Source: a virus. From it: a stretch of DNA of 64,000 nucleotides. This document shows positions 5,992-62,718 of this stretch, piece by piece (positions within the stretch are counted from its first letter, which is position 1; every line of letters begins with the position of its first letter). The stretch is taken from positions 1-64,000 of IMG/VR virus record IMGVR_UViG_3300043446_004967; one strand, 5' to 3'. The translations under genes and the position numbers were made by a program. Under the pieces are notes generated by a model. That model was not told where the DNA came from. It did no database searches and worked only from the letters and a program-made list of their open reading frames with translations.

Positions 5992-6390
5992 TCATTTCCC
6001 CGAGCGTACTCTTGCGGAAGCCCCGCGCTCCTTGGCCTTCCGCCGTGCTTCCTCCGCCTGCTGTACCCGGAGGTGACAGGTGTCCGCCGTCGTTTTCACT
6101 AACGACATTAAGTGCGGAAACGCCGCGCACTGGTCGTTCATCCCTCCCCCGTAAGGAAGAAAGCCGTTCTTGTAATGTGAGTAGGCCCCTAGCACACGAC
6201 CGAACAACTCCGGGTTTTCAAGGATGGGCCGCCGAGGGCAACGGCTTTGCGGCGTCCCGTCCAGATCTGACCAGTAAGGGAACAGCGCGTCCTTGTCGCA
6301 CCCCCGGTCCGATTTTTGAACGGGGGTGCAGGTCGCACAGTTGTAGGTAGGGAACTCAATGAGGGCTATTAAGCCCCCTCTGAGTTTTTT
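5992..6390 (-). CDS. Tail assembly chaperone, frameshifted C-terminal part (gpGT-like)
   Basis: The -1 frame after A AAA AAC (6390-6384) reads open: LRGGLIALIEFPTYNCATCTPVQKSDRGCDKD...RCPRRP...YKNGFLPYGGGMNDQ to the stop at 5992; directly upstream of the tape measure. Confidence 0.8.
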   Translation of the reverse strand, partial: KKLRGGLIALIEFPTYNCATCTPVQKSDRGCDKDALFPYWSDLDGTPQSRCPRRPILENPELFGRVLGAYSHYKNGFLPYGGGMNDQCAAFPHLMSLVKTTADTCHLRVQQAEEARRKAKERGASARVRSGK

Positions 6391-6785
6391 GCGGTCGGCT
6401 CGTCTAAATCGTTAGCCTTAATCAAGGCTTCGCCTAACTCGGCGATAAGCCACAGAGGCAGACGGTTTAGCGAAGCCTCGCTAAGCACTTTTCCTTTTCC
6501 GACCTTTGCGTCTTCGGTAACGCACGGGATGTCTTTTCCTTGCTCATCTTTAAAATTGCGCCAGTCTTTTACACCGGCCCTTACTGCGTCCAAGTACACT
6601 TTATTCTTCAATGTGTAGATGGAGGCGTCTCCGGTTCCGACCCCGCGATACACATGCAGCCCGTCAGCCGCGACGGCGCGTTGCTCCGCCGTCAATGCGC
6701 CTAAGGTGAAGGGTGTCTCCTTCCCTACGTCTTTCACGGAGTAGAACGTAAAAGTTTCCGCCAAACTTAAACCGAGGATAGCCAT
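6369..6785 (-). CDS. Tail assembly chaperone (gpG-like)
   Basis: 138 aa between tail tube and tape measure; ends ...AKNSEGA over a slippery heptamer. Confidence 0.82.
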   Translation of the reverse strand: MAILGLSLAETFTFYSVKDVGKETPFTLGALTAEQRAVAADGLHVYRGVGTGDASIYTLKNKVYLDAVRAGVKDWRNFKDEQGKDIPCVTEDAKVGKGKVLSEASLNRLPLWLIAELGEALIKANDLDEPTAKNSEGA

Positions 6786-29532: not shown

Positions 29533-31308
29533 TTAGCCGCAGGCGGAGCAGTCTTCGGTGTTGTTGATGCGCCTCTCCGGCGCATCCGGGTTTTTTGCCG
29601 CTAATGAGCGGAGGTAGTACAGGCTTTTTACCTGCTTTATATACGCGCTTTTGTGTAAGTTGTGGAGTTCTTGCGGAGAGGTCTCCGGGGGTAAGAATAG
29701 GTTAAGAGACTGCGCTTGGCAAATATACGGCGTGCGGTCCGCCGCAAGGTTTATGATATCGTGCTGGTTAATCTCAAACGCCGTGCGGAAAACGTCTTTA
29801 TCCTCGGGGGTTAGACAAGACAACTCTTGCACGCTGCCTTCCGCTCGGGTGATTTGTGACCACACTTCTTCCTTCAGTTGCTCGTTTAACCCTTCGGACC
29901 CGCCTAGCGCTTCGGAGAGTCGCTTGTCCAAGTAGCGATTTCTAAGCGCGAGCGTTCCGCTTAGGGTTTTCTGTGAGTAGCTGTTCCCATAGTAGGGTTC
30001 AATACCCGGCGAGCACTCCCCGCATATGATAGAAATAGACGCCGTGGGCGCTACCGCTAATGCGTGCGCGAAACGCTCTTGCAGGCCGGCTTCCGCCGCG
30101 TCAGGACAGGCCCCGCGCTCTGCGGCCAGTTTCGCCGACGCCCGTTTGGCATGTCCGTGCAGTTCGGAAAAAATCTTATTATTATACGCGCGAGCGGAAG
30201 CGGAGCCAAAAGGCAGTCGTTGTGATTGGAAGAAAGAATGCAGACCCATGACCCCGAGCCCGATGCTTCTTTCCCGAAACGCCGAGTAGGCGGCGGCGGG
30301 GACTTGAGAGCGCGCGATATAATCCTCCAACACGTTGTCTAGCATTCTGAGACAGTCTTCCGTGATCCGCTCGAAATTTTCCGCGCCCTCGCGCTGCCAC
30401 GTTAAATAGTGCTCTAGGTTCAGCGACCCTAGGCAGCATACTGCCGTGCGGCGCTTGCCTAAATGGTCTTTGCCCGTGTGCAAAGTGATTTCGCTGCACA
30501 GATTAGAGGTCTTAACGTCAAGACCTAATTTCTTATATACGTCCGGGCGCAGCCGATTCACTGTATCCGTGAATAAAATGTAAGGTTCGCCGGTCTTTAG
30601 GCGGAGATTCAGTAGTTTAGCCCAAAGCTCCCGCGCGCCGACCTCCCGGACAACGCTCCCGTCCGCCGGACTGGTAAGCGCCCACGAAGAACCCTGCTCA
30701 ACCGCTCGCATAAAGCCGTCGCATACTGACACGCCATGATGGAGATGTAACGTTTTGCGGTAAGGATCTCCCCCCGTAGGGGTACGTAAAGCTAAAAATT
30801 CCTCTATCTCCGGGTGAGACATCGGCAGGTATACGGCTGCGGAACCCCGACGCAAACTGCCCTGTGAGATTGCCAGCGTCATCGATTCCATCACCTTAAT
30901 AAAAGGGATAATCCCTGAGGTGACTCCGCTGCCCTTTACCTGCTCCCCTATCGAACGGATATTCCCCCAGTAACTCCCCAGACCGCCGCCGCCGGACGCC
31001 AGTAAAATATTCTCATCCCACAAAGCACGTATGCCGTCTAGGCTGTCGTCTGTTTCGTTGATAAAACATGATATAGGATAGCCGCGTCCCGCGCCGCCGT
31101 TGCTGAGTACGGGTGTGGCGGGCATGAACCATCCTCGTGACATATAGCCAAAGAGGCGAAAAGCGTGCGCTTCGTTATCGCCATACGCACGGGCGACGCG
31201 CTCGAACATGCCGGAAGGGGATTCTCCGGGCAGGGTATACCGACCGTCAATAACGCGAAGGCCGGCGGAAGTTAAAAAACTGGGGGGCGAGGTAAAGGAA
31301 GATTGCAC
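29533..31308 (-). CDS. nrdA: Class Ia ribonucleotide reductase alpha subunit (no ATP cone)
   Basis: ATPVLSN, PISCF, SNLCSEI, VCCLGSLN, APTAS, SLYYLRS, C-terminal CSAC; likely GTG start at 31308. Confidence 0.96.
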   Translation of the reverse strand: MQSSFTSPPSFLTSAGLRVIDGRYTLPGESPSGMFERVARAYGDNEAHAFRLFGYMSRGWFMPATPVLSNGGAGRGYPISCFINETDDSLDGIRALWDENILLASGGGGLGSYWGNIRSIGEQVKGSGVTSGIIPFIKVMESMTLAISQGSLRRGSAAVYLPMSHPEIEEFLALRTPTGGDPYRKTLHLHHGVSVCDGFMRAVEQGSSWALTSPADGSVVREVGARELWAKLLNLRLKTGEPYILFTDTVNRLRPDVYKKLGLDVKTSNLCSEITLHTGKDHLGKRRTAVCCLGSLNLEHYLTWQREGAENFERITEDCLRMLDNVLEDYIARSQVPAAAYSAFRERSIGLGVMGLHSFFQSQRLPFGSASARAYNNKIFSELHGHAKRASAKLAAERGACPDAAEAGLQERFAHALAVAPTASISIICGECSPGIEPYYGNSYSQKTLSGTLALRNRYLDKRLSEALGGSEGLNEQLKEEVWSQITRAEGSVQELSCLTPEDKDVFRTAFEINQHDIINLAADRTPYICQAQSLNLFLPPETSPQELHNLHKSAYIKQVKSLYYLRSLAAKNPDAPERRINNTEDCSACG

Positions 31309-31491
31309 GTCGGCCTCTAAGTGTTTTATGTAAAAAAATTTTATGTGATACAACCACGGATTAACCGTGTTTTGCCTGTCAATTATAGCGTGAACGCGCG
31401 ACTAAAGCATGTATAATTGTACGCCGCGGGCGCAACGACGGAGAAAAAAAACGCTCTTGCCGCCGCGACGAACTTTTAAAAAAGTATATCT

Positions 31492-35698: not shown

Positions 35699-36511
35699 AT
35701 GCCGGTATATTTAAACGGCACGTTAATTGAAAAGCGGTATTATCCGTGCGGGGAGATCTCAGTGAGACTGGACGACCCCGCCCTTGCCTCACAGGGGAAT
35801 ACCCTGCGGGTCGACTATAAGGACTCTGATGACATCATTCAGATGCTGCTAGTCGCGGACGCAGTACGTAGAGTAGCCCCCGACAGGGCACTCTCTCTTG
35901 TCCTTCCGTACATCCCTTACGGCAGGCAGGATAGAGTCTGCCACCCTGGGGAACCTTTTTCGCTTAAAGTTTTGGCGGATATTATTAACGTCCAGAACTT
36001 TACCGCAGTGTACACGGTAGAACCGCATTCTGTGGCGTCGGCTAACTACATTCACCGCCTTTGCTCAGTAAGCGCGGCGACGTTAATCACCTACGAGGAT
36101 GGGAAAGGCGTGCGCGACCTGATACGGGAGGAAACCCCCGTGCTGCTCTCTCCCGATAAAGGCGGGAGGCAGCGGGTACTTGAGGTGGCGACCGCACTGG
36201 CCCAACACAATATCGTCTGTGCCGCCGCATACGCCGACAAGCGTAGGGAGGACGGGCAGGTAACGTTTACCCACGTGCCGGAAATTTGCGCCGGGAGAAA
36301 TATCTTGGTCATAGACGACATTTGCGACGGCGGGGCAACGTTCCTAAAGTTGGCGGACGCCTTACAAGAGCGCGGAGCGAGGGATCTTTACTTGTATGTG
36401 ACTCACGGATTTTTTACAAAAGGAACCGAGGAGTTACTTAAAAAATACAAAAAGATCTTTTATTACAAAGACTACCAACACATTGCCATATTGGAGCAAA
36501 AAAATGCGTAA
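35699..36511 (+). CDS. prs: PRPP synthetase homolog (likely NARP1 ADPR-PP synthetase)
   Basis: PYIPYGRQDR, EPHS, SPDKGG, K.R, VIDDICDGGATF, YVTHG. Confidence 0.9.
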   Translation: MPVYLNGTLIEKRYYPCGEISVRLDDPALASQGNTLRVDYKDSDDIIQMLLVADAVRRVAPDRALSLVLPYIPYGRQDRVCHPGEPFSLKVLADIINVQNFTAVYTVEPHSVASANYIHRLCSVSAATLITYEDGKGVRDLIREETPVLLSPDKGGRQRVLEVATALAQHNIVCAAAYADKRREDGQVTFTHVPEICAGRNILVIDDICDGGATFLKLADALQERGARDLYLYVTHGFFTKGTEELLKKYKKIFYYKDYQHIAILEQKNA

Positions 36512-38039
36512 CCCTATGTTTATTACCGACTTTTATAAGATCTCCCACCGAAACATGTACCCGCAAGGTACAGAGGAAGTGTACTCGAACTTGACCCCAA
36601 GGAGCGGTAAGCTCGCTAAGGGCGTTGCAGGCGGTCTGCCGTTCACCGACGGAGTATTTGTCTTCGGGACAGAAAACTTTATACGGGACTACCTTTTAGG
36701 AGAATGGGAGACGGGTTTTTTCCGGCGGCCTTTAGAGGAGGTTTTGGAGGAGTACGTCAGTCTGCTATCTGACACACTCAACGGACCTGTGGAGAGTTCG
36801 CACGTTGCGGAATTGCACGGCCTCGGCTATCTGCCGTTAGAAATTAAAGCGCTCCCCGAGGGCGCGTTCGTGCCGGTACAAGTTCCGATGGTGACGGTAC
36901 GCAACACGTTGCCAAAATTCTACTGGCTGACGAACTACATAGAAACGGCCATGTCCGTTTACTTGTGGAAACCTTCCACAATTGCCACCATCGCCGCAAA
37001 TTACCGCGCGGTTTTGCTCATGTACGGGGAACGCACGACCGCCGACACAAGCTACGTGGACTACCAAGCCCACGATTTTTCATTTCGGGGACTGACGTCT
37101 CTGCGCGACGCGGAGCTGACCGGCGCGGGGCACCTCACAGCGTTTAAGGGGTCTGACTGCGTACCCGCGTTCCAGTTCCTGCACCGGCTCTATGCCGCCC
37201 CCTACGGTGAACTGGGGGGTTCAGTTCCCGCCAGTGAGCACTCCGTTATGTGCGCGGGGGAAGAAGAAGGAGAGTTTGAAACCATCCGCCGGTTGGTTAC
37301 GGAAGTGCATCCGACAGGGACCGTCTCCATTGTCGCGGATACGTGGAATCTGTGGCGTGTGCTTACGGACTATTTGCCGCGTCTGAAAGACGTAATCTTA
37401 GCCAGAGAAGGTAAAGTAGTCATTCGTCCCGACAGCGGAGATCCTGTAAAAATCGTAACGGGAGACCCCGAGGCCGGAGGTGACGGGCCTTACGCGGACG
37501 CGGAGCGTAAAGGAGTGGTACGCGCTCTGTACGATATCTTCGGGGGAACCGTAAACCCGAAAGGCTACAAAGAGCTGGACCCGCATATCGGGGCCATTTA
37601 TGGCGATTCCATCACCGTTTCCCGGGCGCAGGAGATACTGAGCCGTTTAGAAAAAAACGGCTTTGCCGCAAACAATATATATTTTGGGGTCGGGTCGTAC
37701 TCTTACGGGCACATGACCCGAGACACGTTCGGTTTTGCGGTAAAAGCGACCTCCGTTACGATCAACGGAGAGCGGCGTGCCATCCAGAAAGATCCTGTCA
37801 CGGGGGACCGCGAAAAAAAATCCGCTCGGGGTTATCTTGTCGTGGCGTATGACACTCTCGCAGGAAGGTACGTGTTGAGTGACGGCAGACCGTCCCCGGA
37901 AGGCGGGTTTCTGGAGACCATTTTCCTCAACGGGAAGCGCGTCGGGCCCGAGGCCACGTCATCTACGTTCGCCACGATCAGAGCGCGGGTACAGGGTAAG
38001 GCGGCGGAATGGGCAACCCGGTATACGCAGGGGATGTAA
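36504..38039 (+). CDS. nadV: Nicotinamide phosphoribosyltransferase homolog (likely NARP1 nicotinamide ADPR-transferase)
   Basis: TDFYKISH..MYP, HDFSFRG, PASEHSVM, SIVADTW, IRPDSGDP, IYGDSI, TRDTFGFAVKAT, KKSARG. Confidence 0.93.
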   Translation: MRNPMFITDFYKISHRNMYPQGTEEVYSNLTPRSGKLAKGVAGGLPFTDGVFVFGTENFIRDYLLGEWETGFFRRPLEEVLEEYVSLLSDTLNGPVESSHVAELHGLGYLPLEIKALPEGAFVPVQVPMVTVRNTLPKFYWLTNYIETAMSVYLWKPSTIATIAANYRAVLLMYGERTTADTSYVDYQAHDFSFRGLTSLRDAELTGAGHLTAFKGSDCVPAFQFLHRLYAAPYGELGGSVPASEHSVMCAGEEEGEFETIRRLVTEVHPTGTVSIVADTWNLWRVLTDYLPRLKDVILAREGKVVIRPDSGDPVKIVTGDPEAGGDGPYADAERKGVVRALYDIFGGTVNPKGYKELDPHIGAIYGDSITVSRAQEILSRLEKNGFAANNIYFGVGSYSYGHMTRDTFGFAVKATSVTINGERRAIQKDPVTGDREKKSARGYLVVAYDTLAGRYVLSDGRPSPEGGFLETIFLNGKRVGPEATSSTFATIRARVQGKAAEWATRYTQGM

Positions 38040-41386: not shown

Positions 41387-41480
41387 CGGCGGGGACGGTA
41401 GGATTTGAACCTTCGACGCGGCTGCAACGCCGCGTAACGGTTTAGCAACCCGCCGCCTTAAGCCGCTCGGCCAATTCTCC
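41387..41480 (-). tRNA. Degenerate tRNA-Ser(GCT), probably a pseudo-tRNA
   Basis: D-arm TGGCCGAGCGGCTTAAGGC, anticodon loop TT-GCT-AA, long variable arm, T-loop GGTTCAAATCC; acceptor stem has 3 mismatches and ends CCG. Confidence 0.7.
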
Positions 41481-41489
41481 CTCTGATAA

Positions 41490-49483: not shown

Positions 49484-50080
49484 TTAAACGGTTGCGGGCG
49501 CCCTCTTAGCGGCGGGCGCGCGCGGTCGGATGGGCTTTTTTGCTGCAACCGGCGCGGCCGGCTTAGGCGGTTGATATATTTTTAGTTCGTTTTGTGGGGA
49601 TTGCTCCCACGTTTTTACATCTTCGTTAAGCTCAAATGTTAACGCATGTTGCGTCAACATAAATCGTGCGCCCGGGTTTATCGCTTCGGACGGCGTGGCT
49701 TTTTCCGGCGTAATAAATTTATGATGTATTAAATAATTTAGCACGCCTGCATCTAGGCCGAACGCGCGCTCAACAATTTTACCATTTTTTAGCGTTACTT
49801 TAACTTCTCCGAAGCGCGGAAAGTACGCTTCGCCGAAGGCGTTCCGAAGAACGCTCAGCGCCGCTTGGTTGCGCGGCGTAAGCGTGGCGCCCGCGTGTTC
49901 CGCCGTGGCGTACTTTACCGGCGTTACGGTTCTGTTATTTTTCGAGGCGTGGGGGTTTGGCTTTGAAACTACCCCGGAATCGCCGGCGTAGCACGTCGGT
50001 ATGCACGGAAGGGCGTTCCCGTTCATTTTCGCTACGCAGGCGGCGCGCGTTAAGACTTCGCGCATATTGCTTCTTTTCAT
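49484..50080 (-). CDS. Hypothetical early protein
   Basis: Directly downstream of promoter copy 1. Confidence 0.7.
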   Translation of the reverse strand: MKRSNMREVLTRAACVAKMNGNALPCIPTCYAGDSGVVSKPNPHASKNNRTVTPVKYATAEHAGATLTPRNQAALSVLRNAFGEAYFPRFGEVKVTLKNGKIVERAFGLDAGVLNYLIHHKFITPEKATPSEAINPGARFMLTQHALTFELNEDVKTWEQSPQNELKIYQPPKPAAPVAAKKPIRPRAPAAKRAPATV

Positions 50081-57327: not shown

Positions 57328-57735
57328 TCATTTTCGCGCAATTTCTGAGGACAAGGGGTTAACTGCAACCCCTTGTCGGAGCACTTCGTAGTGAAGATGA
57401 GGCCCCGTGGAATATCCCGTAGACCCTACGTAACCAATTATCGCCCCTCGCGTCACGGACGCCCCCGGCCTAACGCCATCAGCAAAACGGGATAAGTGCG
57501 CGTAACGAGTAGCTAAGCCCGCAGCGTGACGTAGCGTAACCATATTCCCGTAGCCGCCACGCCTTCCCGCAGACTTTACCACGCCGTCCCCCGTCGCATA
57601 TACGGGCGTCCCCAAAGGGGCGGCAAAATCCACGCCCTTATGCATACGAGAGCACTTAGCAATAGGATGACGCCGGCGTCCGAATCGAGAAGTAATCCGG
57701 GCGTGTTTAATAGGCAGCCCCAACGAAGGGCACAC
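57328..57735 (-). CDS. M23 family peptidoglycan endopeptidase domain
   Basis: ITSRFG.R.HP, HKGVD (HxxxD), GGYGN, YAHLS, STGPHLHYEV (HxH). Confidence 0.95.
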   Translation of the reverse strand: MCPSLGLPIKHARITSRFGRRRHPIAKCSRMHKGVDFAAPLGTPVYATGDGVVKSAGRRGGYGNMVTLRHAAGLATRYAHLSRFADGVRPGASVTRGAIIGYVGSTGYSTGPHLHYEVLRQGVAVNPLSSEIARK

Positions 57736-57746
57736 GGCGCCCCCGG

Positions 57747-58370
57747 CTACGAGGCAGGCTTTTTTCCGGAAGGCTCTCCCTCTTTAGAAGGAAGGCCGTC
57801 GCCCCCAAAAAACCGATCAAGCAGACCCACGTCTGACTTAGGGGGAAGCTGTTCCCCCTCGTCCCCGGCTGGCGTATCGCCGTTGTACCTTGGGCCCGGC
57901 AAAACTCCGTCGGGGCCTGACCCCGAAGACGGCGCAATGACTTTCGTCTGCCCCTCCCCGTCGTGCTGGTCAACGAAGTCCCCCAAAGAGGACTCCTTCT
58001 CCGGGGCATACGCGACTTCCGCCCGAGCCGTTTGCCCCGAAGCAAGAAAAGACCTGCGAGCCGGGTAATAAGCATACTCGTTACCGCCCTTAACAAAAGC
58101 GACCCTCGCTCCCTTACCGTGAATCTCCGAAGCAAACCCTATTAATGCCCCCGGCCCCCCTTCCAAAATGTGCCGCTGGTAAACGGACTCGCATCCGTCA
58201 ATGATTTTATCCTCAGTGTACGTATAGTCGCATACGTAGCGGGTAGCTCTTTGCGCCTCCGCCAAAGACGCCTCCAACCCTTTCAGCTGCGAGCGGGCGC
58301 TTAGTCTTCCGCTTACCGCTCCAACGACAACCGCAACTACGGCGACCGCCCCAAACAATTTTTTTGTCAT
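57747..58370 (-). CDS. Membrane-anchored protein, putative N-terminal part of an M23 fusion
   Basis: N-terminal TM helix; ends SGKKPAS over A AAA AAG. Confidence 0.7.
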   Translation of the reverse strand: MTKKLFGAVAVVAVVVGAVSGRLSARSQLKGLEASLAEAQRATRYVCDYTYTEDKIIDGCESVYQRHILEGGPGALIGFASEIHGKGARVAFVKGGNEYAYYPARRSFLASGQTARAEVAYAPEKESSLGDFVDQHDGEGQTKVIAPSSGSGPDGVLPGPRYNGDTPAGDEGEQLPPKSDVGLLDRFFGGDGLPSKEGEPSGKKPAS

Positions 58371-58416
58371 AATTTTTTAGTCTCCTTATTTTATAAATTG
58401 CCCCCGGACAAGCCGT

Positions 58417-58749
58417 CTAAGGACGCAAAGGAGCAAGCAAAACGCTCGGACGAGATGCCCGCGCGGAGGGGTTCCCCTCATCGTCATCGTCATCGCCATC
58501 TTCATGGCTGTCCCGCTCCGGAGCCGGAAGATACGACACGGGCGCCGCGCGAGGAATAGCCCGAAGATGCGGGCTAAGCGCGTGCTGGAATCCCAGCCCC
58601 AAGGAAAGCAGCGAAACGGCAATTAAGGCCGCCGCCGTTGTAATCCAAACCCCCCCACGCTCAGCGGTCTTCGCCTTGGCCCCGGCGAATAAGGCCGCAA
58701 CACCGGAAATAATAGTAACGCCGAAAGCTAGTAAAATGTAATAGTCCAT
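58417..58749 (-). CDS. Two-TM membrane protein (holin candidate)
   Basis: Two hydrophobic helices, charged C-terminus, next to the M23 locus. Confidence 0.5.
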   Translation of the reverse strand: MDYYILLAFGVTIISGVAALFAGAKAKTAERGGVWITTAAALIAVSLLSLGLGFQHALSPHLRAIPRAAPVSYLPAPERDSHEDGDDDDDEGNPSARASRPSVLLAPLRP

Positions 58750-62355: not shown

Positions 62356-62718
62356 TTACAAATCGTTTTCTTCTATATCCACTACTTCGTCATAAACCAT
62401 CTCTACCTCTGGATGGCGCTCAAACAAATCGTATAGTTTATCAAAAAACTCATAGTAATCGCCGTTTCCTGCGCATAGTAGATAAGGTTTTCGGTGTAGC
62501 ATTATGATGTACCCCCGCGCATAGAAACTCGACATACTCAATGTTATTTCAACATTAACACGCCGATTGCCTATCATTTCCTCAAAATGTCTGTTGTAGT
62601 CCATAAAGAGAGGTATCATGAGGCGCAAAAGCTTCCCCAAATTCGGATCTTCACTAATAGCGCTCTCAATTTCTTCCTTTTGTTTATATAGGTAGAAATT
62701 TTCTGGGTTCCAGTTCAC
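62356..62718 (-). CDS. Hypothetical protein (AT-rich)
   Basis: Coupled GTG start, GGAGG RBS. Confidence 0.65.
   Translation of the reverse strand: MNWNPENFYLYKQKEEIESAISEDPNLGKLLRLMIPLFMDYNRHFEEMIGNRRVNVEITLSMSSFYARGYIIMLHRKPYLLCAGNGDYYEFFDKLYDLFERHPEVEMVYDEVVDIEENDL

Follow-up and report, generated by a model that had tools for sequence, protein, structure and literature searches.

In a virus whose genome is IMG/VR record IMGVR_UViG_3300043446_004967 (110,897 bp with direct terminal repeats; its first 64 kb, i.e., 64,000 nucleotides, are analysed here and called the window), a conserved programmed −1 ribosomal frameshift of the dnaX type seems reasonably probable. The shift would join an open reading frame (ORF) carrying an export signal or membrane anchor, hereafter the anchor ORF, to a second ORF for an M23 peptidase. 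Both lie on the minus strand between positions 57,328 and 58,370. What can be observed in favour of this interpretation are the recoding signals, their phase, the intact enzyme, and the conservation of the split between the two ORFs together with the Lys-Lys, Pro-Ala-Ser and stop codons (KK-PAS-stop) that close the anchor ORF. The elements of the locus are as follows:

Positions 58382–58387, minus strand: canonical Shine-Dalgarno (SD) sequence AAGGAG of the anchor gene, 11 nucleotides (nt) 5' of its ATG, with an anti-SD pairing energy of −9.3 kcal/mol.
Positions 57747–58370, minus strand: anchor ORF in the zero frame, 207 amino acids (aa), from the ATG at 58370 to the TAG stop at 57749–57747.
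Positions 57776–57781, minus strand: internal SD-like element AGGGAG, separated from the heptamer below by 10 nt (AGCCTTCCGG).
Positions 57759–57765, minus strand: slippery heptamer A_AAA_AAG of the X_XXY_YYZ pattern, in phase with the anchor ORF and encoding K203-K204.
Positions 57717–57755, minus strand: possible stimulatory hairpin on the 3' side of the heptamer, from which it is separated by 3 nt, with a minimum free energy of −21 kcal/mol.
Positions 57733–57735, minus strand: GTG, the possible start codon of a free 135-aa M23 product, 11 nt after the TAG and with GGGGG (57744–57740) 4 nt upstream.
Positions 57328–57783, minus strand: ORF in the −1 frame, with 151 codons between its flanking stops, ending at TGA (57330–57328); 143 of its codons would be used after the slip.

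The last codons of the anchor ORF read AAA GAG GGA GAG CCT TCC GGA AAA AAG CCT GCC TCG TAG. The phase of the heptamer is correct, as the zero frame GG[A AAA AAG] is translated as G-K-K, and CCT GCC TCG TAG follows it directly, placing the stop three codons past the slip. A check of the sequence and its ORFs thus recovered every element of the arrangement AGGGAG-N10-A_AAA_AAG that an earlier note on this DNA had described, and confirmed its claim that the −1 frame is open into the M23 domain, namely from 57783 to the terminal TGA. Upstream, the −1 frame is shut by a TAA at 57786–57784. Any frame change is confined to the 34 nt between 57783 and 57750, because only there are both frames open, and the heptamer is the only slippery site inside this overlap. 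In-phase A_AAA_AAG was found nine times in the ~32,600 codons of the genome (about one per 3,600 codons), and the chance of finding one within a given 11-codon window is ~0.003. The distance of AGGGAG from the heptamer is within the ~10–14 nt expected of a dnaX-type site. Its pairing with the anti-SD sequence amounts to −8.5 kcal/mol, a strength equalled at the same upstream distance in 1.9% of random positions, and none of the remaining eight in-phase heptamers of the genome has a comparable SD-like pairing. One of these eight, at 49541 on the minus strand, lies 19 codons from the end of a 198-aa ORF (49484–50080), without an upstream SD-like element.

After the slip, the −1 frame reads ...RKK ACLVAGGAVCPSLGLPIKHARITSRFG... 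into Peptidase_M23 (PF01551), which was matched with 122 bits against a cut-off of 28.7 and over 96/96 profile positions. The zinc-binding and catalytic motifs HKGVD (HxxxD) and HLH (HxH) are present and align to those of 3SLU, the closest solved structure (E = 6.6e-37, alignment from 'PIKHARITS'); 6MUK and ShyA are further structural relatives. The catalytic domain is 60–69% identical to alphaproteobacterial MepM-like proteins. Judged from its sequence, the −1 frame encodes a complete LytM-type M23 metallopeptidase with intact catalytic motifs. The predicted products are 207 aa long in the zero frame and 347 aa (204 + 143) as a trans-frame fusion, in agreement with the ~207 and ~350 aa expected earlier. 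A lipoprotein signal in the −1 frame (RKKACLVAGGAVC) was considered and dropped: the stretch from the TAA at 57786 to the GTG at 57735 contains no start codon, and a lipobox would require a different residue ahead of the Cys.

The anchor ORF starts with a signal-anchor or Sec signal (MTKKLFGAVAVVAVVVGAVSG), followed by a small domain that has two conserved Cys residues and by a Gly/Pro/Asp-rich tail. The N-terminus consists of MTKK, then 15–16 G/A/V-rich residues, and then a conserved AG|R; from this composition it could be a signal-anchor, a signal-arrest-release (SAR)-like segment or a cleavable Sec signal. The previously proposed label 'membrane anchor' is uncertain, because a hydrophobic stretch of this length followed by the conserved AG|R could be a cleavable Sec signal. 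Whichever signal type applies, the M23 domain has no export signal available other than this N-terminus. The C-terminal tail of ~85 aa (residues ~120–207) is of low complexity and linker-like, and ends in KKPAS. In an AlphaFold model of the anchor, the mean predicted local distance difference test score (pLDDT) was 42, with residues 93–207 below 50, and the model was not taken into a fold search. To go by this model, the tail is probably disordered, and a disordered tail ending where the M23 domain begins makes sense as a linker to a domain. For the function of the anchor domain, searches of Pfam, PHROGs and ESM Atlas as well as an exhaustive HMMER search gave no family match.

Homologues of the anchor were sought in a 5.8-billion-protein collection, which yielded four 90% clusters from Logan, ENA and JGI assemblies. 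Including cluster members, these comprise eight distinct sequences, 56–62% identical to the anchor of the window and derived from at least ten contigs and three data sources. All eight end in KKPAS followed by a stop, and none (0/8) is fused to M23; likewise, an exhaustive HMMER search of 1.84 billion representatives retrieved only the anchor's own cluster, with no other architecture and no fused relative. The M23 orthologues on the same contigs (e.g., P0007 with P0003, and P0251 with P0002) are 75–81% identical, indicating that the enzyme is under selection. They were called as separate ORFs of 101–106 aa starting inside the domain, one of them past the first zinc ligand, so the starts called by Prodigal cut into the domain. 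The M23 gene call in the window is truncated by Prodigal in the same way, despite the GTG upstream. We discarded the truncated calls as proof that the orthologues have no start of their own, which would be a weak argument since Prodigal also ignored the GTG in this genome. On the sequence comparisons above, the split between anchor and M23 is old and maintained. As the split is maintained and the enzyme selected, translation of M23 must involve a change of frame or else begin at a separate start codon.

Over its last 12 residues, the anchor has invariant columns at K196, G198 and K203–S207. The invariance is thus complete from the slip site onward, and G198, a Gly whose codon forms the core of the SD-like element, is kept as well. 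The 5' arm of the hairpin falls within the invariant P-A-S codons, and the hairpin contains the G-run and the GTG listed above as well; dual reading together with this arm at the slip site is the setting that we suggest for the complete invariance there. Of the signal conservation that the earlier note had called for, KK, PAS, the stop and the split are invariant at the protein level (n = 8), to which the comparison was limited. Other scans were negative. Among metagenome contigs, anchor-derived patterns returned no relative, and a query with the M23 orthologue P0008 returned only MepM-like genes at 65% identity or less. Protein scans and a DNA-pattern scan of viral contigs gave no orthologue, the 44 DNA-pattern matches being rejected as chance ones by tblastn; neither a scan of genome contigs nor blastn and tblastn against GenBank phages gave an orthologue.

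In the mechanism that we propose, ribosomes translating the 207-aa ORF would reach A_AAA_AAG with two Lys-tRNAs in their P and A sites, while AGGGAG is bound by the tail of the 16S rRNA and a GC-rich helix stands at the mRNA entrance. A fraction of the ribosomes would slip back by one base and continue for 143 codons, yielding a 347-aa protein in which an N-terminal Sec signal or anchor and the small domain are tied by a long flexible linker to an active M23 endopeptidase. All other ribosomes would stop three codons on and release the 207-aa protein, which lacks the enzyme. The fusion would leave the cytoplasm as cellular MepM-type enzymes do, and because it is the only form of M23 that carries an export signal, the slip rate would set the amount of hydrolase reaching the periplasm. 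Here the slipping itself, its efficiency and the roles of the two products are what we infer; that a fixed product ratio would dose or time wall cleavage, as proposed in the earlier note, is a reasonable conjecture.

The likeness to E. coli dnaX drawn at the outset can be upheld: the heptamer A_AAA_AAG and the SD-like hexamer AGGGAG are identical, and a downstream stem-loop is possible. In dnaX, the SD-like element reportedly lies 10 nt upstream of the heptamer (Larsen et al. 1994). The three dnaX signals including AGGGAG are documented, and frameshift efficiency falls to 50% upon mutation of the SD-like element, from 84% to 20% upon deletion of the hairpin, and to 2% upon mutation of the heptamer (PMC5389563). 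The two systems also differ. A shifted ribosome on dnaX stops almost at once and produces a truncated protein, whereas a shift at the M23 locus would add a whole catalytic domain; moreover, the phage hairpin starts 3 nt from the heptamer versus ~6 nt in dnaX, contains many G-U pairs and is not statistically distinctive. In the OrfA/OrfAB system of the IS3 family (e.g., IS911 and IS150), A_AAA_AAG with an SD-like element and a 3' structure yields a short product and a catalytic trans-frame fusion, and the zero-frame stop comes soon after the slip. The stimulators of IS911 are mentioned in a review of recoding (PMC5009743). In producing a short protein and a catalytic fusion, the logic of the M23 locus is closer to IS3 OrfAB and to the phage tail chaperones G/GT than to dnaX. 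The IS3 enzyme is a transposase, whereas a secreted wall hydrolase is concerned here, and the M23 locus has no inverted repeats or mobile-element features.

As for G/GT, double-stranded DNA (dsDNA) phages use a conserved −1 shift there as well, obtaining two products with a common N-terminus in a set ratio, but the module and the proteins are different ones, and the defining trait of G/GT is a location between the tail tube gene and the tape measure gene. The window contains a candidate for such a site in its own right:

Positions 5992–6785, minus strand: candidate −1 site of the G/GT type, with a 138-aa ORF (6785–6369) and an in-phase A_AAA_AAC at 6390–6384.

This heptamer is followed by a hairpin (GAGGGGGCU-UAAU-AGCCCUC), and the −1 frame remains open as far as 5992, right ahead of the tape measure gene. 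Neither of the two ORFs has a PHROG or Pfam match. As a candidate second A-rich −1 site with a hairpin, recognised from the sequence at the canonical position of tail chaperones, it was counted in favour of the frameshift interpretation.

The predicted fusion would also copy the plan of MepM, ShyA, Csd3 and NMB0315-type enzymes, in which an N-terminal membrane or export signal is followed by one or more upstream regions and a C-terminal LytM domain. Those cellular enzymes are, however, single ORFs with Csd3_N2, whereas the upstream ORF of the phage is in another frame and bears no detectable similarity. No Pfam match to Csd3_N2 (PF19425) or an equivalent was obtained for the anchor ORF, and tblastn with the N-terminal regions of MepM-like proteins found nothing credible there, so the idea that the anchor is a diverged MepM N-terminal region was given up. 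The sole MepM-like trace upstream of M23 is a stretch of six residues, GRAFRK, in the −1 frame. Among lysis enzymes, the endolysin loci of CD27L, Lys170 and Ms6 LysA give two products by internal initiation, and the N-terminus of SAR or signal-anchored endolysins is an export or anchor segment. The M23 locus would resemble them in having two related polypeptides per lysis locus, or an N-terminal export/anchor segment, but internal initiation uses a start in the same frame, in contrast to the frame change considered here. Only if the frameshift occurs would the export/anchor segment and the catalytic domain stand on one polypeptide, as in the SAR or signal-anchored plan.

M23 is the sole wall-hydrolase Pfam family detected in the whole 110,897-bp record, where no match to Phage_lysozyme, SLT, Amidase_2, Peptidase_M15_4, Peptidase_M15_3, VanY or GH19 was found (the search for GH19 had no working control). 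As no other wall-hydrolase family was found in the phage, a lysis role is likely, and the locus can be taken as the wall-hydrolase or lysis locus of the phage. A neighbour is relevant to this role:

Positions 58417–58749, minus strand: 110-aa ORF, a holin-like candidate whose two hydrophobic segments are followed by an acidic, charged C-terminus.

This ORF is located directly 5' of the anchor gene. Its transmembrane (TM)-like regions comprise residues 1–26 and 32–58 (Kyte-Doolittle), and a strongly acidic stretch, HEDGDDDDDEG, lies near its C-terminus. PHROG and Pfam searches gave no family match for it. The other neighbours of the M23 locus are a dUTPase and small genes, with a non-coding repeat region 3' of M23. 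A spanin-like gene was looked for downstream of M23, and the idea was dropped as no candidate was seen.

Several observations weigh against a frameshift at this locus. In-phase A_AAA_AAG makes up nine of the 41 Lys-Lys pairs that follow NNA, i.e., other phage genes show no avoidance of it, and such tolerance suggests that ribosomes of the host do not slip much on the heptamer by itself. In E. coli, A_AAA_AAG is highly slippery with a single tRNA-Lys(UUU) decoding AAG (PMC5009743); about half of bacteria possess another tRNA-Lys, by which AAG is read tightly and slippage reduced (PMC5009743). The nearest M23 relatives are alphaproteobacterial. The GC-rich hairpin of the earlier note can form, but it is not better than dinucleotide shuffles (z = −1.2, 24/200). 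While the region is in the top 1.2% of 45-nt windows genome-wide, two further windows inside the GC-rich anchor gene equal its stability, and its 3-nt spacer from the heptamer is short of the ~5–8 nt expected of a dnaX-type stem-loop. The conservation described above was read from protein sequences and concerns the residues encoded at the heptamer (Lys-Lys, for AAA AAG and AAG AAA alike), the SD-like element and the hairpin. In addition, RGRAFRKK in the −1 frame upstream of the heptamer (57760–57783, minus strand) resembles the GRS[LI]RK that precedes M23 in MepM-like alphaproteobacterial proteins. The probability of such a resemblance by chance is roughly 0.02–0.06, and its support is marginal. 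From this resemblance, the stretch may be a relic of a captured host gene, its codons now forming the SD-like element and the A-run. If the relic is real, the argument from coincidence is weakened, because GGG AGA ... CGG AAA AAA would have supplied both the hexamer and the A-run by descent; equally, a genuine relic suggests how a frameshift cassette could have been co-opted.

An alternative that we regard as rather unlikely is that of two translationally coupled genes. The anchor would end at its TAG, and ribosomes would initiate at the GTG, or reinitiate there once the terminating ribosome has melted the hairpin, producing a free cytoplasmic M23 endolysin of 135 aa that passes the membrane via the upstream holin-like protein, with the heptamer and AGGGAG being coincidental or inherited. 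The GGGGG pairs with the anti-SD sequence at −8.6 kcal/mol, within the better quarter of the gene starts of the phage, and initiation coupled to termination is plausible because the GTG with this SD sequence lies so close past the stop. The 135-aa product would start seven residues before the structural start of the M23 fold, a minimal but complete size for the catalytic domain; an ORF with two TM segments that could release a cytoplasmic M23 is at hand; and short-spaced coupled gene pairs do occur in this phage. Both the tolerated heptamers and the possible relic, which could account for the G-run and the A-run, fit this alternative too. On the other hand, it requires three coincidences: a heptamer in an 11-codon window (~0.003), an SD-like element at the dnaX spacing (0.019), and a KK-PAS-stop invariant in all relatives, for which dual coding would provide no reason. 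The GTG is also buried, as the 45-nt window from −25 to +20 (73% G+C) folds at −21 kcal/mol, a stronger fold than at 129 of 130 putative gene starts and in 99.5% of random windows. The 4-nt spacing between the SD sequence and the GTG is short, and the long linker at the end of the anchor protein would have nothing to connect to. By contrast, a typical coupled pair of this phage at 62700–62740 on the minus strand has GGAGGAGG, 6 nt, and then a GTG overlapping the upstream TAG (TAGTG). This pair also holds an in-phase G_GGA_AAG, which is probably meaningless. Further −1 overlaps with heptamers are found at 29596, 19944 and 62727, of which the one inspected, 62727, was rejected as a frameshift site, being an ordinary coupled pair with its own start. 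Thus, exclusive production of M23 from the GTG at 57735, named earlier as what would overturn the frameshift, stays a rival: the start has an SD sequence close behind a stop, yet its structure is unusually strong. Should it be correct, the locus is an ordinary gene pair of little interest. The frameshift and the start at the GTG are not exclusive, and both products could be made.

Two other explanations appear far less probable. Transcriptional slippage, in which RNA polymerase adds one A at the A6 run and creates an mRNA with a single 348-codon ORF, is highly improbable in our judgement: the run is short compared with the ~8–9 or more identical bases of known productive slippage sites, and the SD-like element and the hairpin would be left without a role. 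One inserted A would nevertheless fuse the frames exactly, and slippage of this kind is known for dnaX of Thermus thermophilus (PMC5009743). Still harder to believe is an error of assembly or sequencing, or a pseudogene left by a recent deletion within an A7 run that inactivated a single anchor–M23 gene. Homopolymer runs are hot spots of indels and one extra A restores a single ORF, but the seventh A imagined in the earlier note is very unlikely, because KKPAS is followed directly by the stop in all eight diverged homologues, which come from independent assemblies and include no fusion, and the M23 part is conserved as described. The interpretation given in the earlier note is supported in part, its anatomy and the likeness to dnaX being borne out.

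The phage itself is siphovirus-like, with a portal, a major head protein and a tape measure protein of 1,986 aa that matches PhageMin_Tail and Tape_meas_lam_C, and it carries genes for nucleotide and NAD metabolism:

Positions 29533–31353, minus strand: large subunit of ribonucleotide reductase (PHROG 84, E = 2e-159).
Positions 36483–38039, plus strand: nicotinamide phosphoribosyltransferase (NAMPT; PHROG 448, E = 1e-176).

CheckV estimated the completeness of the record at ~80%, despite its terminal repeats. Two tRNA genes were found in the record, for tRNA-Ser(GCU) (window 41391–41481, minus strand) and tRNA-Met(CAU) (record 93300–93375, minus strand); tRNA-Lys is absent among them.

To our knowledge, nearly all programmed −1 frameshifts described for dsDNA phages concern tail chaperones, along with a few capsid genes. 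The timing of lysis is attributed to holins, antiholins, SAR domains and alternative starts. Our literature search found no frameshift-dependent endolysin or M23 enzyme, in agreement with the statement in the earlier note that no such case is described in a phage lysis or wall enzyme. A review of recoding does not mention endolysins, peptidoglycan or hydrolases, and its only lysis case is the lysis gene of MS2, whose L protein is expressed by way of frame errors within the coat gene and of termination-reinitiation there, a different mechanism (PMC5009743). If the frameshift read here from the sequence is real, it would be the first one described in a phage wall enzyme or endolysin, that is, a known mechanism in a new functional setting. 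We give about an even chance to a broader proposal, in which a small phage family attaches its sole export signal or anchor to its sole peptidoglycan hydrolase by a conserved dnaX-type −1 frameshift, so that the frequency of slipping, rather than a promoter or a holin alone, would meter periplasmic M23. The excess anchor-only product may then be a partner or a brake, and the phages may have co-opted the GR..RKK codons of a captured host MepM gene for the stimulator and the slip site. If this is true, standard annotation as a hypothetical protein plus a truncated M23 would miss the real product, and the locus would be a compact natural cassette for ratio-controlled secretion. A frameshift that decides whether a wall hydrolase receives its export signal would represent a new layer of dosage control in lysis or wall remodelling during infection.

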